Shown here in pieces: positions 1 through 55,436 of a stretch of DNA of 64,000 nucleotides. A program made the position numbers and the translations under genes. The stretch lies in contig CM074520.1 of assembly GCA_037379345.1 (NCBI GenBank), forward strand, positions 6,696,001-6,760,000, written 5' to 3'. The stretch comes from Perna viridis (lineage: Eukaryota). Position 1 is the stretch's first letter, and the number at the start of each line of letters is the position of its first letter. Below the pieces are notes generated by a model. That model had not been told where the DNA came from. It saw only the letters and a list, made by a program, of their open reading frames with translations, and ran no database searches.

Positions 1-1532
1 TTTTCAATGTATCATAATACTACAAATAGAATCAAATTTTCAAATAGACTAAGTTCCACATTCAAATCAGAATGTGGTGTCAAACAAGGTGATGTTTTGA
101 GTCCTTTATTTTTAGATGATATTGTACAGGTATTAAAGTCAAATAATTGCAATCGTGTAAAAATTGGGGGTATATCAGTAAATTGTCTTTTATATGCTGA
201 TGACTTAGTTATATTATCTGAAAGTAAACAAGGTTTCCAAACTAGTTTAAATATTGTTCATGAATGTTGCTGTAATTGGAAATTATGTTAATATGTCGAA
301 ATCTAAAGTTATTGTATTTAATTCAAATGGTAGATATAAATGAGTTTACATACAATGATGATATCATTCAAACAGTACCAAAATATTGTTATCTTGGTGT
401 CATGTTACATTATAATGGTAAATTTAATTTAGCTATATCTTTGCTGATGGAAAAGGCTAGAAAAGCTTTATTCAAGATAAAAAAGTCAGTAGGGCTAGAT
501 CATTCATGTCATTTATTAGAAAAGCTGTTTGATACTTTAATTAGCCCCATTCTTTTGTACTGTAGTGAAGTCTGGGGTATAGATATTGATACATGTACTT
601 TTAATAACTCAGTTGTAGAAAAATTTCATTTAAAATTCATCAAGGAAATTCTTGGTGTACACTGCAAAGCTACAAGGGCTGCATGTCGTTCTGAACTTGG
701 ACGAATCCCACTTCACTCAAAAATTATGTTTTCCTGTGTCAAATTTTTAAATCATCTTCTTTCCTCAGAAAACACTTTGGCTTTTAAAATATTTCAAGCT
801 ACAGAAAACAATAACACTTGGACAAAGAAAATATATTCTATTATCAATAAACTTGGTTTTTCACACATAATCTATCAAAAATGTAGCTTTAAACCTATTT
901 TAACAAATATAAAACAACGAATAACCGATCAATTTATGCAAGAGCAACATTCCCAATCCAAAATTCAAATAAACTAACATTTTATCGAAATTTACACATT
1001 GGATACAAACGAGCAAGCTTTGGTGATATTTTACAAAAAAGATCAGAAAGATCCTCTCTTTGTAATATTAGAATCAGTAGCCATAATTTGGAAATAGAAA
1101 AAGGTCATCATCTATCAATTCCTGCAAACGAGAGATTATGTAAAGTTTGCAACTTTGGGGAGGTTGAAGATGAATTACATTTTTTGCTAAAATGTGAAAA
1201 ATGCCCCAGAGTTAGAAGTCAATTTATATCCAAATTATCAAATATTCTCAAAAAAGATATTGATCAATTAATTACTACACACTGAAACAATGTATACTCA
1301 GTGATTCGTATACTATACTAAAGATTATCACTAATTTTTTAGATATCATTTTTTTCTATCAGAAAAAAAAATATTTCATAACAAATATCTCTTCTCATAA
1401 CATTTGATTAATATTCTATTTACATATATACTGCTACTATATATGTTACACTTTTATGTATCAATTATATGGGCCTTTGCCAATTATTGTAATTGTGTTT
1501 GTGCCAATAAAGAATATTATTATTATTATTAT
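1..1532 (+). mobile_element. 3' part of a non-LTR retrotransposon (LINE, RTE-X-like), frameshifted, with 3' UTR and (ATT)n tail
   Basis: RT motifs GVKQGDVLSP and LLYADDLV (7-291). YCYLGV..ISPILLYCSEVWG..ELGRIPL follow in another frame (276-977). C-terminal Zn-finger-like ERLCKVC..EDELHFLLKC (1088-1285). Ends in AATAAA (~1506) plus ATT repeats to ~1532. Clade call is from recalled motif similarity. Confidence 0.88.
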
Positions 1533-4361: not shown

Positions 4362-5350
4362 CTATTGACTGCAAACGACACACGTTAGTTCTCTCCCCTT
4401 AACGTCTGGAGGACAACCAAGTGACCTGCAGCCATCAATCTCAACAGGGTAGACAACTCCTTCATTGTCTTCTCTATTCTTACGTGATGTTGATGACGTG
4501 GGGTACTCGTCTACACATACATATTCTGTGGCCTGGGCCACCAAGTATCCGGAGTACTCTTTGGTCCAACCGTTATGACATGTCATTTTTCCAGGAACCA
4601 TTAGGACCGCAGAATGTCCAGATGTTTTCCAGGAACCATTAGGACCGCAGAATGTCCAGATGTTTTGCATACAACACAAGACATATCTCTGTTAAGAACC
4701 CTGCGACCAAATGCCTGATTATTGTGTACTACATCGATTTCTACGCCGTATATTTTCGAAGTCAGTGAGTCAATGCCTGCTTTGTAGTTCTTCCATTCGG
4801 GGTTTTTAGGTAGACATAAAGTGTTAGCTCCGCTTCCCCACCCGCCGAAATGTTTTCCTGCCATAAATCCTGTTATAAATGTAACCGTTAAAACATCAAC
4901 AAATAAAAACACGGAAGATTGGAAATTTATTAATTTTTACAATGTAACTTTGCAATGAAAACGATACAAAATTATTAATTATTCGTAATTTAGCAGAGTT
5001 TGTCTTGAATGTTCCAGGAGCCGATCATTTTTATAGACTTAAATTGCTAGCTTACCGGCATAAACTAAACTTGAGTCGCTTACACACGTCTTTCTTCCCC
5101 AACGAGTATACGTTGTCCCACCAGCAAAGTGAAAGTAATGCATTTGCATGTTGATCATCGGATAAATCTGGAACTATTGGATCAAATAGTCTACCTTTTC
5201 CGGAACACATCTTGATGGACTGAAAGGTTTTCAGATTTGCCTGTATATTCTCAAGAACCTTTTCTATTGCTTATCGCAATCTGAACCAGCATCATAATCA
5301 CTAATAATTAGATAGATGATGACAACACAGAGTGGACACAGAGCATACAT
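4362..5350 (-). pseudogene. Short-chain collagen C4-like (C-terminal domain family) secreted protein pseudogene
   Basis: Signal-peptide-like start MYALCPLCVVIIYLII at 5350. An exon encoding AGGTTYTRWGRKTCVSDSSLVYAG ends at 5056, followed by a GT..AG phase-1 intron (5055-4870). The last exon encodes FMAGKHF..GANTLCLPKNPEW..YGVEI..CVVC..LMVPGKMTC..GWTKEYSGYL..YVCVD..YPVEI..GRELTCVVCSQ*. Disabled by a 38-bp duplication (4587-4662) and by a stop/frameshift in the 5' part. Confidence 0.85.
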
Positions 5351-8486: not shown

Positions 8487-10020
8487 AGTAATCAAGGGAA
8501 CCAAAATTCTAGCGGAAATCAAAAGAATGTAATCCAGGGACAAAGACCAGACACGGAAAAAGAGAAATACACAACAAAGAACATTAAGTAACTAAAATCA
8601 TACATACAAAGTAACAAAAGCAAATGAGCAACTCAGACACCACTAAAAACTGGGAGCACGGACCAGGTGAACCGGTAGGGTAAGTGTCCTCTGCTTTTCT
8701 AGAAACACCCGAAGAGTTGCTCATAAAAAGTCAAGTCCGGGGTAGACAAACGAGGAAAGGAAAACTATGACCCGTTCAATAAATCAGTTTTCATGGTGCA
8801 GATGGATACACCATAACGGATACAGACATACACAACAGAGAACATAAAATGACCAAAATAATACATACAAAGTAACAAAAGTAAATGCGCAACTCGAACT
8901 CCACTAAAAACTGGGAGCATGGCCAGATGCACCGTTAGGATAAGCGTCCGCTGCTTTTCTTAACTTATCAGTTGTGATATGAAAACTCCATACGCAGGTG
9001 CAGAAGGGATATTGCCATAGATGAAAGTAAGTTGACAATACGGAATAAAAAGTCATCACGTTTGTCGTATAGTTTGGTCAATAGTTTTCCTTTACCATCG
9101 ATTTCTAAGTGTAGGTCAAGATATGAGGCTGACATCACAGTGTCTGTAGTATCCTTTACCTCAAATTCTTTGGGGTAGATGCAATGTATAAAATCCCCGA
9201 AACTAGGATTGTTTAACGATAATACGTCATATATGTAGCGGAAACTGAGATGAAAGGATCTAGCTAAACGATGTTCCTTCTTTTTGGATCAGATCAGCTA
9301 ACAAGTCAGCCTCACAAGAGTGAATGAATAGGTCAGCAAGTAGAGGAGAACAATTTGTTTCCATTGGAATGCCGACCGTTTGTTGAAAAAACGCGTCCAC
9401 CACACTGGACAAATAAGTTGTCGATGAAAAATCCAGCATTTTGTAAGATGATTTGGATTGATTGTTGGGATTTAACTACCGAGCAGCAGTATTTCAGCTA
9501 TATTCAGTCGATGAACATGAAATGATCATGATGAAATGAAAAAAAAGGAATGGGACACAAGGATAATAGGGTTGTTTTTACGAAGTATAAGGAATCTCTA
9601 CCAAGAACTATATAATTGTATCTAGGTGTATACCCGGTCTTGGAGTAACAACGATGTATTTGAGTCGGAATTTTAACTGAGTATGGGGAATAGAAGTATA
9701 AAGATTTGAAAAATCACAGATTTTAATGCTATCGTGTTCTGATAATAATCCTGAATTGAGGGTTTCCAAAAGATCTTTCGAATTTTTCAGGATCCACACT
9801 GAATTAATACCACTACGGGATTAACAAGTGTTGTGGTAGGACTGGAGATCCTCTTTGACAGCTGTGATTATATAAGTTAAAAGTTTTGGAAGAGGTTTGG
9901 TTGTACATTTTGCATATGCAGCTATATAGTGTTGTTTGTTGGATTCTTGTGGAGTTATATAGACGGTAGATCACAATCATGGTCTTTGGTAGAGAAACCA
10001 AAAGAGGATAAAAATAAAAA
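8487..10020 (-). mobile_element. Decayed Penelope-like retroelement (Naiad-type RT), copy B, with partly duplicated 3' end
   Basis: Minus-strand motifs LHKNP, WILKNSKDLLE, DFSNLYTSIPH, QQTVGIPMETNCSPLLADLF, FRYIYD, SYLDL, YDKRDDF and PSAPAYGVFISQLI lie in 8962-10020. A ~130-bp direct repeat occurs at 8570-8700 and 8831-8960. Confidence 0.88.
9448..9571. mobile_element. Short foreign insertion (SINE-tail-like) interrupting the RT of copy B
   Basis: RT homology stops on both sides of the segment. It begins gatttggattgattgttgggatttaac..cagtatttcagctatattcag, which resembles mollusc SINE 3' tails. Confidence 0.45.
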
Positions 10021-33300: not shown

Positions 33301-34099
33301 TGTGATAATTAAGCACTAAAAACCTTGAATCACGGAAATACATGTAATTAAAGGAAACCCCATATGGTGCATGATAAGAAATTAAAATTACAGTCTTGCA
33401 TAATATGTTCTGCAAGGTACACTTGATAAGCATTTCATTGAGGCTTATTGTATTAATAGGTTAGCGCATGCAGGTGTCTATTCCATCCGCAGTGCAATGT
33501 GATGTTTAGGAGTAACGGTACAATGTATATTATATCCACATAAGACTGCGCATGTGTAAGAAATTGGAAGGAATTTGTGTATCCCAACTGATACATTGAA
33601 GTGCATTGCATGTATATTTTGAAGAATTCACATGTACCGTTTTATGATATTTAGATGAAAAGAAAAGGTCCAACCCCATGCAGACGAAATTTTGAGATGT
33701 GACCTTCGTACTGAGCGTAAATCCTAAGTATGTACTATGTTCCATAACATCTCACAGACCCACTCTGAAAAGTTATTTGACGGATCAGATTCCAACTTTT
33801 ACTCACATCTTCCTATTTTCCTGGCCACAACTCTTGTGGTTGTTAGCTTACCCAAGACGATTTAGCGATCGAGTGTTCTTTGTATGTAGTTAACGAGTTT
33901 ACGATGTATTTAACGATGTGTTTGTTGGGGTTTAACGTTTAGCAACCCCTCAGGCCAGTATGTACCACTTCCAAACCAAGAATCTTCAACAGAAGCAATC
34001 AGACTGTGTGTAGACTCACTGCTCATTTACCTAATAAGGGATAGATTTATCAAGCACAGGACATCCCCCTCAGGCCAGTAATAATAAGAAAATCTATAG

Positions 34100-37000
34100 A
34101 CTTTATATTCTCTTTTACATACAGCCACAATTTTCATCACATGATCTGACTGTACAACAAAGCAACACTAGTATTTACATTTCATGCTATAACAGTTTAA
34201 CAATTAATTTGATTCTAACAAGTTCTGTGGTTTTTCTGCAAGATACAGTGTAGCAGTCCTATTTATGCCAGTAATTAAAATAACAGGGCAGATCTGAGAC
34301 ATATGATAGAAATTATAGCACATTCAAAGATAGTGTTAAAGGGTTATTCTTCCCTAGATAAAGAGGCCAATCATCATTGTAGCAACTATTTAAGGTTTGT
34401 ATTTCACAATAAGAAATGTTTTCAAGATAAAGGCAATCTATAGAGGTATTAAACTTCATATAAAGCCCATGTGGCAGAAAGAATAAATGAAAATTACAAG
34501 CTACATGTACATCTTCAAATGTAGCAACCAGTATATGTAGTTTAAATTAGTAAGATTATACCTTTACAAGAGTACATGAACAAAATTCATCAGACTTGAG
34601 ATATTCACTTTATTTCATGAACATCTGAGTTTCTACCCCCAGTTAACCACAGTTTGACAATACAAAGCATTGCACTACATTGACTGCAATACAAATTTTA
34701 TTCATGTTGGTGGAGCATGATTTAAAAACATGAAATTATTTCTCATCTCAAATATAGCGTTCCTTGTCAGGTCACTCAGCAATGGTCAAATGGGACAGAT
34801 GTAAATGCACTGTATATTATATTGAGTAAAATATATTAGTTAATTGGAGTAATTCAAACTTTATCCAAGAAAAAGATGAAAATAATATATTAAAATACTG
34901 AAGTTTTAAGTATAAGAATACTTGGAAAACACCAAATCAAACAGTGGCGACAGTTAATTCATTTGTCAAGAACTAAAAAAAAAAGGAAATGGTTTCAACA
35001 TACATATACATGTATCATCAGAAAATGGCATGTACCTGAAGTGAAATATAAAAAAAAACACTACCAGTTTACGAAGTAAATGTAGTTGCTGAAAAAATCT
35101 TGCCTTTAACCATAATCAAGTGACAAGTTACTGTACACCTACAACATATCTAATACACACAAAACAGACATAACTAGTTGGTGCATTGAAAGCATTCATA
35201 AAGGGGCACAAATTGTACCCTTTATTATATCACTTTTCTTGTGATAATCATGATTTGACATTATGTACAAACTAACAGATATATTTACAAAAAAAATCTG
35301 ACACAGAATTAAATATACACCAATTGAATAATTAATCACATTTGAAACAAAAACAAAAAAGTTTACCATCATTAAAAAATAATTTATTCTGCAGATAAAT
35401 CATTAACAAAGATGGCAGTGATAAAACTAAAAACCACAAAATGAGTTAAAACAACCTGAACACAAGATTGGTCTCACAAAAATTAAAGCTAAATACAGAA
35501 TATGGACAGCATTGTGGATCATCTACATCTTTCTATCATGACAAATAATCCCAATCAACTCCTACCATCTTACAAAAAGAACTACATGCATGTGGTTTTG
35601 AATGTGATTCAAGGGCGGAAGGATGTAAATGTTACACAGAGCTGTCCATAGAAACTGTACATTTCATTCTACTAGAACAAAAACACTATACCACAGACAA
35701 TTGATCTCATGGGTCAGTCAGCTAGACAAAGAACAGAAAGAGTAGTTTTCAGATGTTGCTTGGTTTAGTATAAACAGGAGTCTTCTAGATAAAAAGCAGA
35801 TAAAAAATATACAATATTTTTTTAATTGTATTTTTTTAAACTGACAATAAACTGGAGTCTTACAACATTGTAAACGTATGGTTTTGTTTCTAGGATAAAA
35901 GCTGACTTCACATAACGTTTTTCAGTTTAAGACTTAAAACAACAATAGCTAATAATTTGCAAGTCATTCTGTCAAGTAGCTCACACAATTATTGGAGAAA
36001 ATCTTTGTTTACATGTATATCAACTGCAATGTGAGAGAAGATCACATGGTTGAAATAATGGTCTTATCTACCATTTATTTCATAACAATAAGCATATGAA
36101 AGTTACCTTACTTGATTAAATTTATTTCATAAACTATTTACTGCCATGACCAGAAGTCATAAAGGGAGATAACTTCTATGATTAGCCTTAGACTAACATG
36201 GCCATGATTGTGAAGCTTTTTGACTTATTTTATTCATTTCACCAACATCTCTTTCTGTACACACCAAGTTTGCAACGAAACAAAAGCTCTCAAAAAAGGG
36301 AAATTAAACTAACCATTCACGAAACAATATTTCCCTGAAATACTATGAGTACAGAAAGAGCAAATGATGAACTTGTAATTCATGTCATGGCAATTTATTT
36401 GTCTTTATGGATCTTGACATTCCAGTTCTAAAAAGAATCAAACTGTAACTACATCACTGTTATGAAAATTATGATCTAAAAATAATATACAAAAACTTTC
36501 ATATCCTTCCTGGATATCTATAAAAAAAAAAAAAAAAAAGATTAAAAAATCTAAAAATCATAACATTAACATCAATTACTGGTTGTCACAAACAGGATTC
36601 TTCCAACAATTAAAGATTTACTCATGAACAAACTCAAACATGTAAACATTGTAAAACGTTTTTTCCTTCTAACATTGAATTCTTATTGAAATATTAAATA
36701 TTAGTTATGAGGGAAAAAAAGAGTAAGAAAATAACAGTTACACTGAATACATAGCAAAGAGAGAAAAGTTTGTAATATGAATAAGGTCAAGAAAAATATG
36801 TGTGCTTTCACTTAATTAACTAAACACCTACATGTATCTTTTTGCTAGTAATTTTTGTATCATTATCCAATGCATATAGAAACAATAACATATACAGAAA
36901 TCTTGCCTTAAAGGATTGTTGAGCCATAATAATATAAATGAGAGATAAGGCTTGCCTTAGAATGAAAGAACTGAATTATTTTAAAAAATATTACTAGAAA

Positions 37001-37315
37001 TTACAGTAAATATTTAACTTTCTCAATGATAATAAAAGTTACATGATAATGAGATTCAATAAAGCTGAATAGATTAAAGGAATATTTCATTTTTTTAGGT
37101 GTGAACCGCACTATTGCATACAGACAGAAACTGATTCCAAATGGTCAAATGTGCATAGCTATAAACAAATCAGATTGACTTACAACAAGCAGTTAGACCA
37201 ATCAAGTTGACCCTTACAACATGCAGTTTGACCAATCAGGTTGATCCTTACAACAGACAGGTAGCACTTAAAAACAAAAATAAAAAAAACAATGGGACAA
37301 TATATCACAAATGCA
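34100..37315 (-). other. Probable long 3' UTR of sprouty (end uncertain)
   Basis: AT-rich, CpG-depleted block continuous with the stop codon. Minus-strand AATAAA at ~35383, ~35221, ~34697 and ~34609. CpG depletion ends near 34.0 kb. Confidence 0.45.
37178..37256. repeat. 34-bp tandem repeat (~2.3 copies) just downstream of the sprouty stop codon
   Basis: cttacaaca(a/t)gcagtt(a/t)gaccaatca(a/g)gttga(c/t)c is repeated. Confidence 0.8.
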
Positions 37316-38113
37316 TTATGCACTGGAGGAGTCTGATTCAATCAACAATAGTCGTCGTGACGACTGGGACCCGTTTTCTTTTTTTACTTGTTTTTTACTG
37401 TTACATGTACAGCCACGTTTCCGACACTTGTTGAAGCACATTGTACAACATTTAAGTCCACCCCTCATAGGCCAGTAACAGCAGAGACAAGGCAAACACA
37501 AAGCCATTAATGCCATACAAGTCCATCGTTTGAAACAGTTCGGCTGACTACAACAGGCACATGGATCCACCATGCAATCATAGTCTGCATCCTGTTCATC
37601 CTTCCCGCCACAATGGTAGAATAATGCCTGTACACAACAGAAGCAAGAACATGTCTCTACCACACACTGTCCACTTACGTGACATTCATCTCCACACAGC
37701 CACTTTGATGGTAAGTCCTGCGGTTCTGTACATGCACCACACCGACACTTGTGACACTTTTTACAGATAATTGATTCATCTTCCTCCTTAATAGGTTCCT
37801 TTTTCAATGGGGGAGAGATATTGTTTGATGTTGGTGCATTGATAATTGTTGTGTTTAATGGACGTAATGCACGAGTCCTATTGACCTGATTTTCCCGTAT
37901 TAAAATTGATACTGTGCTGTTGCCATTTCCGCCAGGTTGCCCTGAGCTTATAGTCTTTAAATTCCCTGTGGGTTTTTGGCGTGGTGGACTCTCTATGTAG
38001 TCATTTTGAACCCTTGGGTGAGGACGTATTTGATCTAATGTAATAAATCCTCCGCTACCCGCATCGGGAGGCGGTAATTGTTGGCGCAGCTGTCGATTAT
38101 TCGCCGATCTCAT
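37316..38113 (-). CDS. spry: Protein sprouty homolog (RTK/ERK feedback inhibitor), 265 aa, single coding exon
   Basis: N-terminal Cbl-TKB motif NDYIESP (NxYxxxP). Cys-rich SPR domain IICKKCHKCRCGAC..LPSKWLC..CVQALFYHC..DPCACC..RWTCMALMALCLPCLCCYWP..C..RGCTC. The first in-frame ATG is 38113 (in-frame TAA just upstream). Splice acceptor tttcag|A, exon starting at 38154. Confidence 0.96.
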   Translation of the reverse strand: MRSANNRQLRQQLPPPDAGSGGFITLDQIRPHPRVQNDYIESPPRQKPTGNLKTISSGQPGGNGNSTVSILIRENQVNRTRALRPLNTTIINAPTSNNISPPLKKEPIKEEDESIICKKCHKCRCGACTEPQDLPSKWLCGDECHVSGQCVVETCSCFCCVQALFYHCGGKDEQDADYDCMVDPCACCSQPNCFKRWTCMALMALCLPCLCCYWPMRGGLKCCTMCFNKCRKRGCTCNSKKQVKKENGSQSSRRLLLIESDSSSA

Positions 38114-40416
38114 ACCATCATCGCTCAAGTCATGGTTTTATTCACCTGGTATGTCTGAAATAAAAGAAATTTTTGTTTTTAATTACAGCTTAAAATTCTA
38201 AATGTCCAAAAATATAAGCATAAATGATTAATACAGACTCTTTTTATGACATGTTTTTTATTTTTTTTTATTTTTATGAATTTGAAAACATTTTTACATG
38301 AATTCTAATGTTGTTTTTTTCCAATCTGTATCCATCAATACAAGACAGTTATAAAAAGATATGTAAATAATGAAACATACAAATATACAAACTTTGCTTT
38401 TTATACATACACAGCTTAAAGTTTATTGGCAACTTTATCGTTTTTCTATTGTTCTTACTGCCTGATATTTTTTATCTCAGCCTACTGCAATGACTTAAAA
38501 AATATCAGCAATCTGCAATGACAATGTCACATCAAGTTGACGTTTCCAATGAACAGAAGAAAGTCAGCTTTGAACATCTTGACAGAACAGTACATCCTGC
38601 TCTGTCATATTCAATCTGATATTTTCTGTCTTCACTACAAAACTGTCATTATTTTGTATTTATAAATATTAGTACAAAAATAAACCCAACAAAACTATTT
38701 AATATCTGTGCCTCATGTTATAGAATTGTTATATACTTCTTATTCATGAACTAGTGACACATTTAGTTAAGACTCAAAAAAGATCCTAAATTCCATTCAC
38801 GTTTAATTTATAATTAATGATTTAACAACTTTGTTCCAGATTCTTTAAATTATAGGATAAATTTGTAATGTGACGGAGACTTTTCTGGCCTAAACAAGTT
38901 CTACTTCGTAACAAAAAAGAACTTGGTCGTAACAAAATTGTTGATACTATAGTTGTACATGTTATTTGCAAACCCAAGAAAGTGAGAAACATTTACCATA
39001 AATATAACTACATTTTTTTATAATATTGATCATGCATTTAAAAATAATCATATACAGTGACAAGCTGCCACATAAGTTCCGCTTCGATTTTCTATTATAA
39101 ATTTATATCAACATCTATATAAAGTTGGTGACTCAAACCACACGACAGATGTTTTAGTAAAATGCATTCTACTAAGGCTGGGCTCATAATACATTATATG
39201 AAGCATTAAATAGCCATTTGATAAGAACTTATAAGTACTTGTATGGGGGGTTCGTGCACCAGATAATGTTTATGTCAGCATTAATTTCAAGTCTTTATAA
39301 GTACTATTGATTTGTAAGTCATGTGTACACTTCATTAACAAACAAATTGAAGGTAATAAAACCAGGAAGTAAATCACACCTGCCTCTTATTCACTTCAAA
39401 GGTAATCAAAGACTAAAGTAGGCTGCCAAAATATCATCAATTGTAAAAGGTCAAGAATAAAATTGGTGAATTCAGTCATGACTTAGAAATGGTCTCACAA
39501 CAGGCATTCTGTACATTGCATGAATTAAGTATTGGTTTTAGCAAACCACTATAATAAATTACAGCACTGAGCAGTGTTGTGAATTAAACTGTAAGGAACT
39601 TTTAATTCAGAATGTACCCTTGTTCTTTTGGGACAAAGCCTCACTTTGAAAGCGAGGTCATGCTGAAATGAATTTCCACCTCTGTAGACAGTAGTTAAAA
39701 TTCAGTGTGTTTTTGTTTTTGAACTTACACTCCTTGTTTTTGTTTTTTTAATCAACATATGAAAAGAAGACTTAATGATGTGTATTCATTATGCAGGTTT
39801 TTCTCATAAGCACAAGTACATGTACATGTATATAAAATCTGCAATCTTCTAAATATGATGACAGACCAGTGTCACATCCATACCAATACAGTATGAAATT
39901 TTCAGTGCAATAAAGTGCTTATCAATTTTGTGACCTAAATGATGAAAGAAATATACAAGTACATGCACATGAAAACTTCTGTCTAACCCATCCACCTAAG
40001 TACATGTACATTTGTACAATAAAATCTCCTTTTAAGAAAGGATAGTTTGATATAAAACTATAAATAAACTAAGGATAAGGATCTCCCCACCACCAGTCCA
40101 TATGACAAGGATCTCCCCATCCAGCATACGAATGCCCAAACCATACCTGTACATGTGTGTGTGAACAGCAGGAAAACTGCTCTAATGCCTTAAAGTAGGG
40201 CCTAGAAAAACTTAATGAGCATACCCTAATTCATTGCATCTTGATAAATCAGAAAATGAATGCACTGAACCTGCCAAAACAATGATGTCAAAAGTTTAAC
40301 AAACACCATATTAACCAATTCAAAACAGACAGTCGAAAAACAACTATGTGTATAATAAATACTTGTGCATGTTTACTTAGGTTATTTACTGGACTACTTG
40401 CAATGCAAAGAAACAT

Positions 40417-40534
40417 AAATTGGTTTGGTTTTAGCAGGTGCTGTGTTTACCAGTGTTCAAAATTCATTTATAACATGTTATAAATGAATTTTGAACACTG
40501 GTAAACACAGCACTTGCTAAAACCAAACCAATTT
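40417..40534. repeat. 118-bp spacerless palindrome (one mismatch) in the sprouty intron
   Basis: aaattggtttggttttagcaggtg..ttataaca|tgttataa..cacttgctaaaaccaaaccaattt, centred at 40475/40476. Confidence 0.95.
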
Positions 40535-43500
40535 TACATCTTAAGTCCAAAAAGGTTTGGTTTAGACAGGATTCATTGTATGTTCAGATCATTTAACATT
40601 TTAACATTTTTTTTAATCTTTGAAATCTGCTAAAAATTTTGGAATGGGCACAGGGTAAAAGAAACCATACTTGTATTTTCAACTTAAGGTAGAATGGGAT
40701 TAAAGAAATAAGAAATGGTTTTGGATACAAAAAAAAATATCAAATGTCAAAATTTTGGAAGAAAAAATTAGATCACAATAAAAATGTTTCCAAAGTGAAT
40801 ACTAACTTTACACAATTTAGTACTTACACTTTTGGATTTGTTCTAGCACAGTACACAATATAGTTGTAATAAGGATACACTCAGAGCATACATTTGTCAT
40901 GCTACAAACATGTAATGTGACTGAAAAGTTAGTTTAAGTAGCAGGTTAACACTAAGGGTCACAAAAAAAAAGAACAAAACAAAAACAAAAGGGGCAAGGG
41001 AGAGGATTTTGTTTATTTTTAAAAATATTTCATTCTGAAACTACAAGTACATTTGTATTAACAACATACATGACTTGCTTTCCACTTTGCCACTAACAAA
41101 CCATTGTATATAAAATCCAGTCAAGGTTATTCTTCATCATGACTTCCCTCCCAATTCCCTCAAAACCATTCTATCAAAAACTTCCCTCCCCATTCCCTCA
41201 AAAACATAAAATAACAGGAAATGAAACCTTTAAGCAATTCAAGAAAATGGTTAATTTGGAAAGAACAAAAATATTTGGGAAAGAGTAGATGATTTTCAAA
41301 GAGAAAATCTACAATGTACATGTGTACATGCTAAATTAAAATACACATGTAGATATGTGAGAGCTGAAAACCACCAATAAGCAAAGTGTACATGTGTATA
41401 CATTTATACATTGTAACATTGTTTTAGAATTATTTTTTTCACACCTAATTAGCCTTCACTCAAGCATACTAAAATTCATAACTCAGAAACAAAAAAAAAA
41501 AAAAAAACAAACAAACAAAAAATTTATGGATGAAGCATGTGGCTGCATACATGTACTTGCTGACATGTACAAGAATGTCTACATCACAAATGTATATCTT
41601 TGAATTCAGTACTTGAAAACTATGAAACTGGTTTTTGCAAGGAGGAAGTACTTGTAAATTGAACATACCTGAAGGTTTTCATCAACTAATATGTTTGATA
41701 TACTATGTACAGTATTTATTTCTATGGCTATGCAAGTTAATGAATTAGTACAAGTAGAGGTTTGTAATTCTACTTAAATCTCATTACTTGTAAAAACATT
41801 TCACCTTGACCTTAATTCACTTAACCTAAATAAAACCAATTCATAGTACATGTACATGTTCAGATGCATGTAAAGATGAAGAAAAAAATTGGTAGTCCTG
41901 TAGTTTCTACCACTTAAAGTAAAAAACCCAAGTTTTGTTTAAGTGCTCGTGTAACATTGACCCTTGAGAAGATTTATGCTTGTTTCATAGATATGTTCAT
42001 AATTTACCCCCTTATTTACCACAAAGGAATACCACTAAAATCAGAGGCTCAGCTGAAGATGATCAGTTGTGGTAGTGTATTAGTAAACTGTACATGAAAC
42101 TAAATCACAAGTTTCCTGTGTACCTTTGAGAATGAAGAATCCAGTAATGTTAAGAGTGATAAAAGAAATTTTTGGGTCTCCTCGTCTGCATGGAAACTTA
42201 AATACATGTATAAAGATAGAGAACTTGAGGTTCACAATGTTTGAAGAACTTTTGGTGATCCCTGAAAGTATTTACTATTTTGCACATATATCTAGTTTCA
42301 CCATATCCCTCTAAATTCTACAATCTCCACACAGGAGATGGAGTATATGTCTCTACCCAACACAGAAGAGTCATCATTTCAGATTTCTGCACTGAATAGA
42401 ATGTACCAAATAATTCTAGCAGTTAAATAACACTTCAATTATGTAAAAAAAAACATAGAATTAAATTATTGAAAGGATTCAAGATAGCAGTTGACACTGT
42501 AGTGACTGCTGAGAGACATTAAGGTTTAGGTTGATGGTAGTGTACATTATGTACATGTACATACATAAATACTGTATATCTAAAACATTACCAAACACCT
42601 TACAAAACTTATAAATGTAAATGAGATAATGTTTACAATGTACATGTATCTTTTAAAGGTCAAAGTCAAGCCTCATGATGACAGAACTACATGTACATGT
42701 ATCTAATCCATGCCATACGTATAGTTAAATGTACATGTATTGCTAAATAAGAACTGACAGGTGTGAACTGACACACTTGTAATTTAATTAAAGCAATTTA
42801 TTACATGTACATTTAGAAAGACAACCAGATTAATGAACCACTTGTAGTTTTTTCTGCAGCTTTCCAACCTTCAGTCAAGTTCAGTTTTAAGTACATTACA
42901 TGTACAAGTAAGAGATTTCACAGGACTGAGGCCACATTTTAGTGGTCATTTCAATGTACACATGCATGTACTGCAAAAGAATTCTTAAATTTTAATTTCA
43001 AATGGAGTGAAAATTAGCCTATAGAGCAATGGACAAATCTCAAACTGTAACAAAATAATTCTCTCCTACTGCTTCCACTTGGGGCTTTGAACATGAACTA
43101 ACTTTCAATTCAGTTTATCTCCCTTTGTAAGCATACAGTTCATTGTACATGTACATATACATGTAATGTATAAGAATATTAAGTAATTATCTACATTTTG
43201 TATTTTTATGCACATTAATGTACATTGTACATGCATGACATCATTTAACTTTCAATAAATTTCATCAGACCCCCCCCTCCCCACAAAAAAAAAGAAAAAC
43301 ACACTTTAAGAGGAGTTCTATGTGTATACTAAGTAAATTGACAGAAAATCTGACAAACAAGAATGGTAATCAAGATATAAGCATATTCTAATCCTTTTTA
43401 GTTTAAAATTCTCGATACATACATGTACATGTACAAATGTACTGCAGGACAAAAAATGATGTTACAATCAACATGAAATTACTGTGTTATTTTTTTTCAT

Positions 43501-45167
43501 TTACAAGTGGGTGACAAAATGTTGTCCACAAATTCACTAATTGACATTGAATATACAGTCCATGTACATTACTATTATACTTGTACAACACATAATATTG
43601 TACATGTATACTGTATAAATTATATAGGTGTCCTTTTAAGATTTCCCATGACCAGTCATGTCAGTGAATGGTACAAGAACTTAAACAGATACATGCATTA
43701 AGGAGCCAGTCACATATTTCACTAGTAAAAATTCTTTAGGTCTTCCAAATAATATTGTTGCTATCCTCAATCCCCTCACAACTCAGCACAAATGGTAGAG
43801 CTTACAGTATTTTACTGCCATACAAATCAAATATCATTTCATATGATATTAGACTGATTGGCCTTGCTCATTGTTTTCACTTCATTAAAAATAAATTCAT
43901 TGCCCTACCTATAGAGTACACATGTACCCACACTTGGCTTTGGTTAGGTCCCGGATTTATTAATTGAAGATTCACAATGTACTCCATATATATGTACACT
44001 GTACTGTATTTATATGTACACTGTATTTTATAAATTGAGCTTATATTTTTTATCCCATAGGTGTTGTTATCTCTTCAACAAACCCATTCTTGTTATAATT
44101 GTACTTTAAATGGGAGCAGTTCATTATTCCAATTTTTTCATTGAATACAGTAAACTAGTACAATTCAGAATTGTTGTTCCGAGGTTACTAAAGAAATTTA
44201 TTGAAAGGAACCATTTTCAATTTCTGTCAAAGAAATAATATTATTTAAGAATTAGGAAGTATGTAACATACACAGAATTTTTATATAGTTCAGGACAAGA
44301 GCCCAGTTCAGATGTACATTTGTACATCTACATATGCAAGTACAAATGTATAATAGTGAAAATGGTCCCAGTAAAAGCTACATAATCTTTTATTTAAAGT
44401 TAATCAACACACAAAAACTTTATAACAGTGCTTGTATTAGTTGTTAAAGAAATCTTGAGAAAGAAATGTTTCTCTGACTCTTAAGATGTCTTAAGGCTTA
44501 TAATCTAATGTTTGATAACAAATCTGAATATGACTTCCATATCCAAGAGCAGATAGCCAATTAACTCATAAGGTTCCCATTCCCAAAAACATTGAAACAT
44601 TATTCTAGTTCACAACTTTAAAATACAAAATTGTACATAAGGTGAAATTTAAAATTTAACAGTAATTAATGTGCATGTACATTGTATATTTGTATAATTT
44701 TACACTTACTGAATAGTGAACAGTGTATAGTCAGTGCATTAATATTACCATTATAGCCTTAAACATCAGATCATCTTTTTCACATTCATATACAAGATGA
44801 TGAGTGTACACAAGTTGAATTAACAAATTAATACATGATTAATACCATTTTTCAATATATTTTCATTATAAAGGCAGTTTTTTTTGGGGGGGTGAGGGGT
44901 GTGTCTCTTTTTTTTTTTTGGGGGGGGGTGGTGTGTCACAAGCTTTACTTAATATTTCAGGATTAAGTTTGAGTAAGAGTAAATGATAATGCAGTATAGA
45001 TCTGTATATTGCCCCTTTTTGTGATTATGGGTTAATTAAGTTGAAATAAATGTTGTCATGTAGTAAATTATTCAACTTTGAAGTATTATATATTGTTTCA
45101 ATATAATTGGATATGTATTCTCATTGTGTTAAGCTCAATATAGGGAAAAATAATTGGAGACATTTAC

Positions 45168-45622
45168 CTGTATACAAGAAAAAAAACATCACAACGTGAA
45201 ATTCACTGACAAATCCATTCTTCAAAATATATTCTTGGTGTTTTGGATGGAAATTTTGTAAATCCGAACTCTGAAACACACAGAAATGTAGAATTAGTTA
45301 ATTCAAATCCGAAGTTGTAACGGAAATTAAGTGATCATAAAGTAATCCACATCTGGTTAATAGAATCACTCCTTGATCGGCCTACTTTTCCATACTCCGT
45401 ATTATAATCCGGGAAAATAAACCATCCTATTCGGAAGAGTAACACAAATCCTATCGACAATCAATCCTTAAACACGAAAAGTGCGATGTTAAACTATCAC
45501 ATGCGAAAAAAGAATCCCTTACGAAAATGTGTATTCCCGCTCAGTAAAACATCACTGCTTTCCACCAGCGATACACGACACACATAATTTTAGCCGCAGC
45601 CAGCTACAACGTAATTATGAAT
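45168..45622 (-). other. spry: Probable non-coding first exon of sprouty (intron 45167-38155)
   Basis: Strong donor CAG|GTAAAT at 45168/45167. CpG content switches from poor to rich at this point. The non-coding exon plus single coding exon layout is typical of sprouty genes. Confidence 0.6.
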
Positions 45623-46025
45623 GAAGCAGAAATGGACCGTTCTTTCCATATAAAACAAGCAATACTTCGGAATATTTTACATCCAGCAATTAGAATGCAT
45701 CATATATTTGTCACTAAGAACTGTTTCATAGTGCTATTTTGTCAAATTCTTACCTTACGCATGAAAAAATCCCTATTTGGTTTTAGTGCCGTAACCCAAC
45801 ACGTTGACCTCTGTGGAAGAATCTACTCTAATTAGCGTAGGGGTAGGCAGGTTTTAATAAAACACGTGATCCCAGAAATTCATTCATTACCTGGCGCATT
45901 AGATCCGCTGAATAAACAACCTATTTTCGCATGAATGAATATACACAGAGACGGTATTCAATGAATATTGATTCGCCCAATCGTCACAGTTATATGATAT
46001 TAGGAATAATTTATCAATGAATTCG
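45615..46025 (-). promoter_or_regulatory. Putative sprouty promoter: TATA-like box, Inr and five Capicua-type T(G/C)AATGAA sites
   Basis: Minus-strand TTTTATATGG has its TATA T at 45652, 30 nt upstream of Inr TCATTC (A at 45622). Octamers at 45618, 45879 (reverse), 45932, 45958 and 46014. E-box CACGTG at 45863. Confidence 0.6.
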
Positions 46026-46120
46026 CGGAATTTTCATTTTAACAGACCTATGTAACTACCTTAAAGAAAAAACGGGCAAAAAGTATATCATATGGTGAAG
46101 ATCTGTGCACTTCCAAACAC

Positions 46121-46352
46121 GACCGCGAACAGAGAAGGTCTGAAAAAGAGACCATTTGTAGTTGGGATATTTGGTACTATTGTCTGAATTCTCAGTATTA
46201 TGGTATAGTATGAAGGTCTGATTGACCGATAGGGTCCCGGAGACTGAGAACGGCCAACCTACCGGACCGCGGAAGTTTAAAACGAAATCATTTATAGCTG
46301 GGATATCTTGTTATATTATCTGAATTCTCAGTATTACTGTATAGTATAAAAA
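46121..46352. repeat. Diverged direct repeat, two ~90-bp copies ~137 bp apart
   Basis: gaccgcg..cattt(g/a)tag(t/c)tgggatat..tctgaattctcagtatta..gtatagtat occurs twice. Confidence 0.75.
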
Positions 46353-47699
46353 TCCGGTTTTGAGGGTTGGAATACCCCAGCATTCTCTGAGTACGAAAGG
46401 TTGGCCCAGGCTACACCACAGTGAACCACCCTTTGTTGGAAAATTTTGATAGTTTTAGATAAATATGAGTAAACAATAGCATATCTTCATCTTCTTCATT
46501 GATACAGATGCGACATCCCAAGACATCTGTGAACCTATATGATCCTCTTTAAAAAAATTGGATTGATCCTCCCGAAAAAGTTTTAAAAATTTGAAATAGC
46601 TTTGTCGAGCGCCTAAGACTAATATGTAGGACGGTTCAGGGACAAAATGCAGAGACGGATATGTCAGACACTTTGAAAAGGAGGAGTACCAGCCGGTGTT
46701 CCTCAGAAAAAGGGCGGGTGCTATAGCGTATTATTTGCAATTTATTTTTGTCAATTTTACACATGAAAATTGCAACTTTTCCAATCAATAGCGGGTGTCA
46801 ACCCCCTGCATCGCCTCTGGATCTGACACTGAAAAGATAAAATACCATCACTTTCCATCGATGATGGCCAATTACTTTAAAATACCAGTCTCTTAAATAT
46901 ATTCGTCCACTTTTCATGGGTTAATTTAAAATTCCTAAGCTGATCCAGACAGCTCGGAATAAAGGAACCCTGCATCGGCCCAACTCCGGATGCTGACATT
47001 CGCTATGCAACTGGAAGCCATGTTGTTTCGGAATGAGAATAGTATACATCACCAAAATAATGGAGTTGTGTTATTATTAAAAACATATATAGTGGTGGAT
47101 CCAGAGATTTCAGGCTATAAATTTTCCAACAAGGGGAAGAGGGACATTACTAACAGAATCCCCGTAAGGCGCGGTCGTGCGAGATCCGTAAGGATAGTCA
47201 AGACCGTAAAAACACACATTCATCAAGAGGGTCTGCCACTGAGATCTGCGTTAAGAATTCTTTGGTGATTTTATTTGAAAAAAAAAGTGAATCCTGACTT
47301 CCTGTTATTTCTTACACCTGTGTATAATTGCAACACCTGCGTACGTGTCGGATACCCTGACCCATTAGATTGAAGGGAGTGACAACAAGGGGTTACATAA
47401 TTATAATTCAAACCTTCAATTTATCACAAAACTAAAATATCCCACGATATTGTATCGAATCACAGGAAGTCGTTGCAATTTTAAACAAAAAAACTTTATT
47501 ATAATGAAAATGGCTTGCCTGTCAAAAATGTCACGCAAGATAAAATTATTGGAATTTTATTTTGACCTAGAACATTATAATGATTTTGTTAAAAAGGATA
47601 TGATCTGTACAAGCGCGGTGCATTGTCATTTAAAGTGAACTAGTCACCTTTTATTCTATAAATCTGAAATTTTAATCCGTTGCACGTGCAGTGAATACA

Positions 47700-50959: not shown

Positions 50960-52125
50960 AATGTGTTCTTCCTTGTAAAGAGATGACACAGTTATAATAT
51001 ACCTACAAGACCTGGGTCATTCAATGTATGTATGTTCTTCCTTGTAAAGATATGACACAGTTCTATATACCTACAAGACCTGGGTCATTCAATGTATGTA
51101 TGTTCTTCCTTGTAAAGATATGACACAGTTCTATATACCTACAAGACCAGGGTCATTCAATGTATGTATGTTCTTCCTTGTAAAAATATGACACAGTTCT
51201 ATATACCTACAAGACCAGGGTCATTCAATGTATGTATGTTCTTCCTTGTAAAGATATGACACAGTTCTATATACCTACAAGATCTGGGTCATACAATGGA
51301 TGTGTGTTCTTCCTTGTAAATATATGACACAGTTCTAATATACCTACAAGACCAGGGTCATTCAATGGATGTGTTTTCTTCCTTGTAAAGATATGACACA
51401 GTTCTATATACCTACAAGATCAGGGTCATACAATGGATGTGTTTTCTTCCTTGTAAAGATATGACACAGTTCTATATACCTACAAGATCAGGGTCATACA
51501 ATGGATGTCTGTTCTTCCTTGTAAAGATATGACAGTTCTAATATACCTACAAGACCAGGGTCATACAATGGATGTGTTTTCTTCCTTGTAAAGATATGAC
51601 ACAGTTCTATATACCTACAAGATCAGGGTCATACAATGGATGTCTGTTCTTCCTTGTAAAGATATGACACAGTTATAATATACCTACAAGACCAGGGTCA
51701 TTCAATGGATGCATGTTCTTCCTTGTAAAGATATGACACTGTTATAATATACCTACAAGACCAGGGTCATACAATGGATGTCTGTTCTTCCTTGTAAAGA
51801 GATGACACAGTTATAATATACCTACAAGACCAGGGTCATTAAATGGATGCATGTTCTTCCTTGTACAGATATGACACTGTTATAATGTACCTACAAGACC
51901 AGGTCATTAAATGGATGCATGTTCTTCCTTGTAAAGATATGACACAGTTCTAATATACCTACAAGACCAGGGTCATTAAATGGATGCATGTTCTTCCTTG
52001 TACAGATATGACAGTTCTATATACCTACAAAACCAGGGTCATTCAATGGATGTCTGTTCTTCCTTGTAAAGATATGACACAGTTCTAATATACCTACAAG
52101 ACCAGGGTCATTAAATGGATGTGTG
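50960..52125. repeat. Minisatellite, 68-69-bp unit, ~17 copies
   Basis: gttcttccttgtaaagatatgacacagttctatatacctacaagaccagggtcattcaatg starts at 50965, 51034, 51102, 51170 and onward. Confidence 0.97.
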
Positions 52126-53784
52126 TTTAGAATTTTAATCTTTATGTAAAATGACCAGTTTTTAAGGCAGTTATTATCATAAGATTCAATAAAATTCACA
52201 GAAGGTTCTTACATGAATGAAGATCAAAGATCTATAAAATTCACAGAATAGCAGTTTCTTACATAAGTGAAAATCAAAGATCTGGTTATTTTTCACAATT
52301 TTTTTTTCCCCAAGTTGAGTGAAGCGAACAAGTGAAAAGATTAAGAATTCCTCTAATGAGTGAAATCTAGCCTGATCTTTAATCTCTGAAAAATCTCCTT
52401 GAAAACATGTATATGTATTTTGTTCTCTTCTCCTAGAGAGCGACAACATTTCTGGGAACAGTGTATGGTATATAGTGACGTCAAAATTTCTCTTACCGTT
52501 GTTTTGAATGTGTCTATGATGCTGCCACTTTTAAAACTTTTCATTGGTTAAGAGAACAAGTTAAGATGACCATGCATGACCTCATCTTACATAGGTCAAA
52601 GGTCAACTTGCAAAGGGCCATTTCCTGAAGAAAAAGAAAAAAGATCTTGCAGACTGAATTATTAAGATCCTTTTATTTTCAATTGCAAATTGGGATATAT
52701 AATTAAGTAGTTTCTATGATAAAAATTTAGGGCAGCATTATAAACATAGATTGGCTGGGATTAACTTAAATATCTTCTGTGTTCATTTATCAAATATTTT
52801 CTATTGCATATGTAAGAATAACCTAATTTTGTAAGCCATTCAAAAGATATCCAAAACATATGTAAGCACTCAGATATTTCTTTCTGATTGTTTAATATTT
52901 TAATGAGAGATGTAAAATATTTTTTTTGGGGTGAAAACACCTCACATTACTGTCATTGTGTCTTGTTCATTTCCACGGGTCAAAGGGTCAGACCATTTTA
53001 CCAGCAGCATACAACTTGATATCTCCCATACTGGACTTCTGAACAAGCTGTATGTTGACAACAAATAAAAAAAATCCTTGGACAAATAAGATATGACCTC
53101 AAGAACTATAATATGATAGCATGAATATCATAAGTTTTAAAATCAGAAATAATTGAAATATTGTCATTCTAGAACACATTGTGCAAAATATTCATAAAAT
53201 TCTATTCTGCAACTTTAATTATCACAATTTAATCCCAGTAACATTTTTTGCAATTATTCCTAACCACAGGAACATACTGCTCCCTAAGCCACAATATACA
53301 ATTTGTATGGAAAACTAAAGCATTCAATTCAACATATACTAAAGGAGAAGGGACATTATGATATATTTATGTCCATAAAATGTAATGGTTGTTTGTCTTA
53401 ATCAGAAATTTTTTGCTGTAAATTAGTGTTATTTCATGCTAAGGCAACATTTTCAATGTAAAAAAAAAAATTGAGCCTTTATCTATTAATTTTATACTCA
53501 TCTTTACTTGTAAAATGCTAATTTATTAATAAAGGGGCAAAAAATGCCAACCATTTAACTCAGGCATAATTTTTTTTCCAAATGAATTTTATGTCCATTT
53601 TTGATTGTTTCTAAATTATGTCAAGCAGAAACTGTAACCAAATAACTAGTTTACAACTCAATGCCCAATTGCCTAAAGGCAGAGACATTATATTTTAACA
53701 TACTTCAAACCATTTTGGTCTTAAATCTCATAATACAACATGATAAAACACCATTAGTACAAAGCACATGAGAAATGTCTACAA

Positions 53785-54443: not shown

Positions 54444-55436
54444 TTTAACATCTGATGCATTTCAGGTCAGAACATTTGGCTAATTGAACAGACCCTGCTT
54501 TAACATCTGATGCATTTCAGGTCAGAACATTTGGCTAATTGAACAGACCCTGCTTTATCATCTGAAGCATTTCAGGTCAGAACATTTGGCTAATTGAACA
54601 GACCCTGCTTTCACGTCTGATGCATTTCTGGACAGAACATTTGGCTAATAGAACAGACCCTGCTTTCACGTCTGATGCATTTCAGGACAGAACATTTGGC
54701 TAATAGAACAGACCCTGCTTTAACATCTGATGCATTTCAGGTCAGAACATTTGGCTAATTGAACAGACCCTGCTTTATCATCTGAAGCATTTCAGGTCAG
54801 AACATTTGGCTAATTGAACAGACCCTGCTTTAACATCTGATGCATTTCAGGACAGAACATTTGGCTAATTGAACAGACCCTGCTTTAACATCTGATGCAT
54901 TTCAGGACAGAACATTTGGCTAATTGAACAGACCCTGCTTTAACATCTGAAGCATTTCAGGTCAGAACATTTGGCTAATTGAACAGACCCTGCTTTCACG
55001 TCTGATGCATTTCAGGACAGAACATTTGGCTAATAGAACAGGCCCTGCTTTCACGTCTGATGCATTTCAGGTCAGAACATTTGGCTAATAGAACAGACCC
55101 TGCTTTAACATCTGATGCATTTCAGGTCAGAACATTTGGCTAATTGAACAGACCCTGCTTTATCATCTAAAGCATTTCAGGTCAGACCATTTGGCTAATT
55201 GAACAGACCCTGCTTTAACATCTGATGCATTTCAGGACAGAACATTTGGCTAATTGAACAGACCCTGCTTTAACATCTGATGCATTTCAGGACAGAACAT
55301 TTGGCTAACTGAACAGACCCTGCTTTAACATCTGATGCATTTCAGGTCAGAACATTTGGCTAATTGAACAGACCCTGCTTTAACATCTGATGCATTTCAG
55401 GACAGAACATTTGGCTAATTGAACAGACCCTGCTTT
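54444..55436. repeat. Minisatellite, 55-bp unit, 18 copies, in the last eIF5B intron
   Basis: tttaacatctgatgcatttcagg(t/a)cagaacatttggctaattgaacagaccctgc with an exact 55-bp period. Confidence 0.98.

Follow-up and report, generated by a model that had tools for sequence, protein, structure and literature searches.

Five octamers of the type recognised by Capicua (CIC) flank the start of a sprouty gene in the window, i.e. the whole 64-kb stretch of DNA that was analysed, and these sites probably act as a CIC repression element that would hold sprouty down for as long as CIC has not been inactivated by RTK-ERK signalling. Established by the analysis are the sites themselves, their over-representation, their position, the identity of the gene, and the presence of a CIC ortholog in the same genome. 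Since the octamers cluster around exon 1 of this gene, a CIC-sprouty switch is likely to exist in molluscs too.

The sprouty gene and its transcript

The minus-strand open reading frame at 37316-38137 encodes a Sprouty protein (Pfam PF05210, E 6e-32), as the initial annotation had proposed. PF05210 occurs alone, the upstream exon is non-coding and no PF00568 match (EVH1 domain) is found at the locus, which identifies the gene as a sprouty and not as a SPRED. The closest named relatives of the protein are scallop and pearl-oyster proteins (56–58% identity) and, because these are its nearest named relatives, the source animal is taken to be a bivalve, in agreement with the mollusc host that had been put forward. 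The transcript evidence consists of contigs from four of 24 sequencing runs, one run for each of four studies; none is recorded as RNA, but a GT-AG intron is skipped in the contigs of all four, which are therefore taken to derive from transcripts. The gene is organised as follows.

45783..45809, minus strand: likely main transcription start region, from contig ends (weak hint only)
45168..45783, minus strand: sprouty exon 1, non-coding (5' UTR), from spliced contigs
38155..45167, minus strand: intron of 7,013 bp, GT-AG, skipped by the spliced contigs
37316..38113, minus strand: sprouty coding sequence, 265 aa, one exon, PF05210
34100..37315, minus strand: probable long 3' UTR, contigs 34099-36510 and 36552-38154 with a gap at a skipped simple repeat

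The 5' UTR of 657 nt (45168-45783 plus 38114-38154, minus strand) holds, as a raw count, 18 upstream ATGs with short open reading frames, two tiny ones of which lie just ahead of the main start. Translational control through these upstream frames is possible.

The octamer cluster

The initial annotation had listed five Capicua-type octamers in 45615..46025, and a motif scan finds all five at exactly those positions and with exactly those sequences. All are strict matches to TSAATGAA.

46014..46021, plus strand: octamer TCAATGAA, ~231 nt upstream of the contig 5' end (45783)
45958..45965, plus strand: octamer TCAATGAA, ~175 nt upstream of the contig 5' end
45932..45939, plus strand: octamer TGAATGAA, ~149 nt upstream of the contig 5' end, overlapping a TCGCATG repeat word
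45879..45886, minus strand: octamer TGAATGAA, ~96 nt upstream of the contig 5' end
45618..45625, plus strand: octamer TGAATGAA, in non-coding exon 1, ~160 nt downstream of the contig 5' end
46495..46502, minus strand: sixth strict octamer TCAATGAA, ~710 nt upstream, beyond the stretch first annotated

The five clustered octamers all lie within ~240 nt of the transcript 5' end and are thus promoter-proximal; the sixth may be background. The cluster mixes G and C at the second octamer position, both of which are permitted by the CIC consensus, and the octamer at 46014..46021 lies within 46011-46022, where all 12 positions agree with the extended A-box form TYATSAATGAAW.

Other words are present in the same stretch. 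The degenerate 8-mer CATGCG[A/T]A ranks first in 45400-46200, with three copies (45500-45507, 45755-45763 and 45927-45933) against 0.02 expected, and overlaps one CIC site; presumably it is similar to a paired-domain (Pax) site. Among the octamers an E-box CACGTG, a CCAAT word and CGGAA words (45863-45868, 45977-45981, 46026-46030) are observed, the latter of which are taken here to be ETS-like.

A Capicua ortholog in the same genome

Of the 24 HMG-box matches in the genome, one has human Capicua as its PDB match (7m5w, E 2e-37); it is located on contig C5. A C1 exon follows ~14 kb downstream of this HMG exon on the same strand (E 3.4e-11 to PDB 7m5w).

C5:43.035-43.050 Mb, HMG box and C1 on the same strand: CIC ortholog, PDB 7m5w matches

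A motif upstream of the HMG exon matches the peptide of CIC that is present in PDB 4j2j (E 8e-4), presumably the Ataxin-1-binding motif. That assignment is consistent with the available part of PMC4287436. The sequence KRRSQSLS before the HMG exon aligns with KRRTQ(pS173)LS, the p90RSK/14-3-3 site of human CIC (PMC3025492, accessible portion). The C2 ERK-docking motif of Drosophila is not recognised in the bivalve CIC region with the sequence patterns used. Binding to the octamer needs the HMG box and C1 jointly, according to the accessible sections of PMC5344332 and PMC13152641, and the predicted product of this genome is a CIC ortholog with both DNA-binding and regulatory motifs.

It is unlikely that the cluster, although functional, is read mainly by another factor, such as the related HMG-box protein BBX, an HBP1-like protein, Grainyhead, or a POU or TEAD factor. 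The genome does encode a separate BBX-like HMG box, and HBP1 may bind TGAATG-like words, but the mixture of TGAATGAA and TCAATGAA fits the CIC consensus, and both genes that carry clusters, sprouty and SPRED (see below), have homologs that are CIC targets. HBP1 is not the best match for either of the two other HMG exons examined (the PDB comparison covered three of the 24 HMG matches), and the TEAD word CATTCC is absent from 45400-46250. The binding words of HBP1 and BBX were not confirmed in the literature checked, which included the available part of bioRxiv 10.1101/379727.

Over-representation of the octamers and repeat checks

The window has an AT content of 66.5% and contains 20 strict TSAATGAA sites outside the cluster, corresponding to 0.127 expected sites per 404 bp, close to the ~0.1 per 400 bp estimated initially; for the broad form T(G/C)AATG(A/G)A the expectation is 0.21 per 404 bp. 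At least five strict sites have a probability of 2.5e-7 at a fixed place and, by simulation, of 3.3e-4 anywhere in the window. With the broad form these values are 2.8e-6 and 2.9e-3, respectively.

The initial annotation had named membership of a repeat as grounds for rejecting the cluster. Such an origin is ruled out: the cluster stretch contains no tandem array, no direct repeat and no longer repeat common to the sites, and 45500-46120 has a single match in the 723-Mb genome. Tandem arrays are present elsewhere in the window, at 50964-52127 (68-bp unit, 17 copies) and 54444-55436 (55-bp unit, 18 copies). The word TCAATGGA in the 68-bp unit matches the broad consensus, but was rejected as a CIC site as being a repeat artefact.

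Across 22 compared regions of the genome, comprising 1.32 Mb of unmasked sequence, at least three strict sites per 400 bp (repeat-masked) are found in only two, sprouty and SPRED, with none in the remaining 1.2 Mb. Among 300 permuted 8-mers, one attained five copies within 400 bp somewhere in the 1.32 Mb and none did so at the sprouty promoter. This permuted-motif count was repeated with repeat masking because the hits of an earlier unmasked look-elsewhere count, in which 68 of 286 motifs had five hits, sat in tandem arrays (nearly all, among the matches listed).

SPRED and other candidate targets

The Sprouty-domain genes found in the genome are one sprouty and one SPRED, the latter, on contig C2, being identified by an additional EVH1 exon (PF00568). 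Two of its octamer clusters are intronic.

C2:23167873-23168056: four strict octamers spanning 184 bp, within a later intron of SPRED
C2:23183738-23184122: three strict octamers in 385 bp, just 3' of the first coding exon of SPRED (exon 1 placed by eye on the sequence)

A third cluster, also of three strict octamers, lies downstream of the gene. Three clusters compare with 0.12 expected in 60 kb (P 3e-4), for a gene that was looked at before the cluster test was fixed. The intronic clusters include three perfect 12-bp A-box forms (C allowed at the G/C position), and in one of the three SPRED clusters the flanks are poor. SPRED is likely to be wired to CIC in the same way as sprouty, via its intronic clusters.

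Three further loci are taken to be Pea3, DUSP6/7 and Ets1/2 from a comparison by eye of translated domains with known sequences; the Pea3 locus has an additional weak PF04621 match. In the cluster test, for which a threshold of at least three strict octamers in 400 bp was fixed beforehand, none of Pea3, DUSP6 and Ets1/2 has a cluster (maximum two octamers), with the Pea3 and Ets1/2 promoters being unmapped. The looser TSAATGRR gives 0–2 sites, versus 1.0 expected, in guessed 2-kb promoter windows of these three genes. The Ets1/2 locus (C5:17968857-18018783) contains five perfect 12-bp A-box-type sites, two of which are 124 bp apart.

Flanking sequences and the extended A-box

The common 5' flank of the clustered octamers is similar to the A-box WTTCATTCATRA of the Drosophila gene ind, which is bound by both Cic and Grainyhead (PMC3245246, available part). 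Of the 15 clustered sites, 10 agree with it at three or more of four flank positions, versus 87 of 285 others (P 0.0055); at sprouty alone four of five sites do so (P 0.035). The 12-mer A-box occurs nine times in the 176 kb of Pea3, DUSP6 and Ets1/2, whereas 813 kb of control genes plus background also yield nine, which makes a ratio of 4.6 (P 0.002). In this test the loci were fixed beforehand and the motif was picked post hoc, after the flanks had been seen. None of 150 permuted 12-bp motifs does as well at these loci, the permuted motifs being rarer and the comparison therefore less powerful. The ERG pair, which contains one 12-mer in 96 kb, was shifted from the controls to an 'ambiguous' group in view of fly Ets21C, a Cic target; given that count, the shift does not favour the result. 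The enrichment of the A-box at Pea3, DUSP6 and Ets1/2 is suggestive only. A tentative extension, which may well prove wrong, is that molluscs retain a full ERK-CIC regulon written in TYATSAATGAAW, with sites that are dense at sprouty and SPRED and dispersed at Pea3, DUSP6 and Ets1/2.

The flanks also bear on the notion that an AT-rich word has piled up here by accident and was noticed because it happens to neighbour sprouty. In a blind ranking over 45400-46200 the CIC motif comes third of 18,144 degenerate 8-mers, and its P of 7.7e-6 fails a blind correction over the ~393,000 possible motifs; a Poisson model predicts ~2 five-site and 62 four-site clusters in the whole genome by chance; and Pea3, DUSP6 and Ets1/2 have no clusters. 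The weight of the cluster rests on the outside prior that ties this motif to sprouty, not on the blind ranking. Against chance, the pairing of motif and gene is predicted by outside knowledge, the cluster lies within ~240 nt of the transcript 5' end, the pattern recurs at SPRED, and the flanks are non-random, which together make a mere pile-up quite improbable.

The transcription start site

The initial annotation had placed one octamer directly on the start site, with transcription beginning near 45622. Exon 1 spans 45168-45783 in three runs and 45168-45809 in one, and is unbroken through 45622 in all four; contig ends give a weak hint to the start and cannot prove it. The contigs of all four studies thus reach 160–190 nt farther upstream, on which ground 45622 is rejected as the main start and this octamer is placed inside exon 1. 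BBCABW is an Inr motif, and a word of this type is present at 45790-45785, within the likely start region. A minor start at 45622 may exist. The 'Inr' at this position is not independent evidence, because the reverse complement of every TGAATGAA contains TCATTC, and the same Inr-like word recurs at 45880 and 45938. The model in which CIC would sit on an initiator at 45622, as the main start, and block initiation is very improbable: TCATTC at 45624-45619 fits the Inr consensus TCAKTY, a weak TATA-like word TATATGGA begins 30 nt upstream, at 45652, and a second start is compatible with the contigs, but against these stand the upstream reach of the contigs, the presence of the Inr match in any reversed TGAATGAA and a sole TATAWAW match that is on the other strand.

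Proposed mechanism

In the favoured reading, repression by CIC from the promoter-proximal octamers, binding, repression and release by ERK are modelled on work in flies and mammals. A CIC monomer would occupy each octamer through its HMG box and C1, and CIC together with Ataxin-1 would repress sprouty. Upon an RTK signal, ERK and p90RSK/14-3-3 would take CIC off the DNA, so that sprouty is derepressed, and the induced Sprouty would then damp the RTK pathway in a negative feedback. By analogy with these systems, the circuit would be functionally wired into the bivalve sprouty gene, as the initial annotation had supposed.

Other features of the window

Two overlapping frames at 4362-4936 (minus strand) appear to be pieces of one cysteine-rich protein, split at a 38-bp tandem duplication (4587-4666). 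The protein presumably resembles the short-chain collagen C4 type; the one piece scanned gives no Pfam match. The regions 276-1285 (plus strand) and 8968-9288 (minus strand) look by eye like decayed reverse-transcriptase elements, and no Pfam match is found for 276-974.

Significance and comparison with known systems

No report of CIC sites in a mollusc or spiralian sprouty, and no mollusc data on its derepression by ERK or by loss of CIC, were found in search listings of the open literature, exclusive of preprint supplements and subscription papers. A metagenome scan for cross-species conservation gave eight loci, none of which reaches a promoter; in the four that are sprouty-like, the sequence ahead of the coding match is no longer than 2.7 kb and contains no recognisable promoter. 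In the 2.7 kb that precede the sprouty coding exon of another animal (L175), two strict octamers with TTA flanks are observed, at 1162 and 2007, a number too small for a test.

ERK1/2 is an organising signal in spiral cleavage (PMC9050690), and neither capicua nor sprouty occurs in the main text and supplements of that paper. If real, the bivalve element would fill in a third bilaterian clade for the control of sprouty by CIC, confirming the expected picture more than changing it, and would offer a compact, testable ERK-responsive element, useful in view of the role of ERK1/2 in spiral cleavage. If the A-box regulon were also true, CIC would become a candidate transcriptional effector of ERK in the spiralian D-quadrant organiser, and the 400-bp sprouty promoter could serve directly as an ERK reporter in mollusc embryos.

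According to the available part of PMC4287436, the conservation of Cic extends from cnidarians to vertebrates, and sprouty of Nematostella goes down under a MEK inhibitor (PMC4968017, accessible portion). The deep bilaterian ancestry suggested initially for the circuit agrees with data on fly sty and mammalian SPRY4, but is not new, as it was already implied by the fact that both of these genes are CIC targets. In Drosophila, Cic DamID peaks at sty take up four rows for control guts and two for guts after infection, and the gene is up on cic-RNAi (log2 0.83, p 2.4e-8; supplements of PMC4684324); the main text of that paper does not mention sprouty (0 hits). The fly gene is thus Cic-bound and Cic-repressed.

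In Xenopus, Cic sites near an ERK-induced gene were identified by a motif scan in intron 1 of fos (PMC10586617, in part). These sites are motif-inferred as in the bivalve, but are accompanied by cross-species conservation and knockdown data (same source, same part). The ind A-box resembles the clustered bivalve sites in its 12-bp form, to which there is one perfect match at sprouty and three at SPRED. The ind gene is a homeobox gene and its A-box a distal enhancer element, whereas the bivalve sites are promoter-proximal or intronic and belong to feedback genes.

The closest parallel in gene type is human. Promoter sites of SPRY4 and SPRED1 are CIC-bound in ChIP-qPCR, the genes are up on CIC loss, and a looser consensus yields, within -1500/+500, five putative CIC sites at SPRY4 and 13 at SPRED2 (PMC5485162; PMC10216487; both in the parts available). 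Human SPRY4, SPRED1 and SPRED2 are, like the bivalve gene, feedback inhibitors of the Sprouty family with several CIC sites near the start; the bivalve case, known from its DNA only, differs from them in presenting five perfect TSAATGAA octamers within 404 bp.
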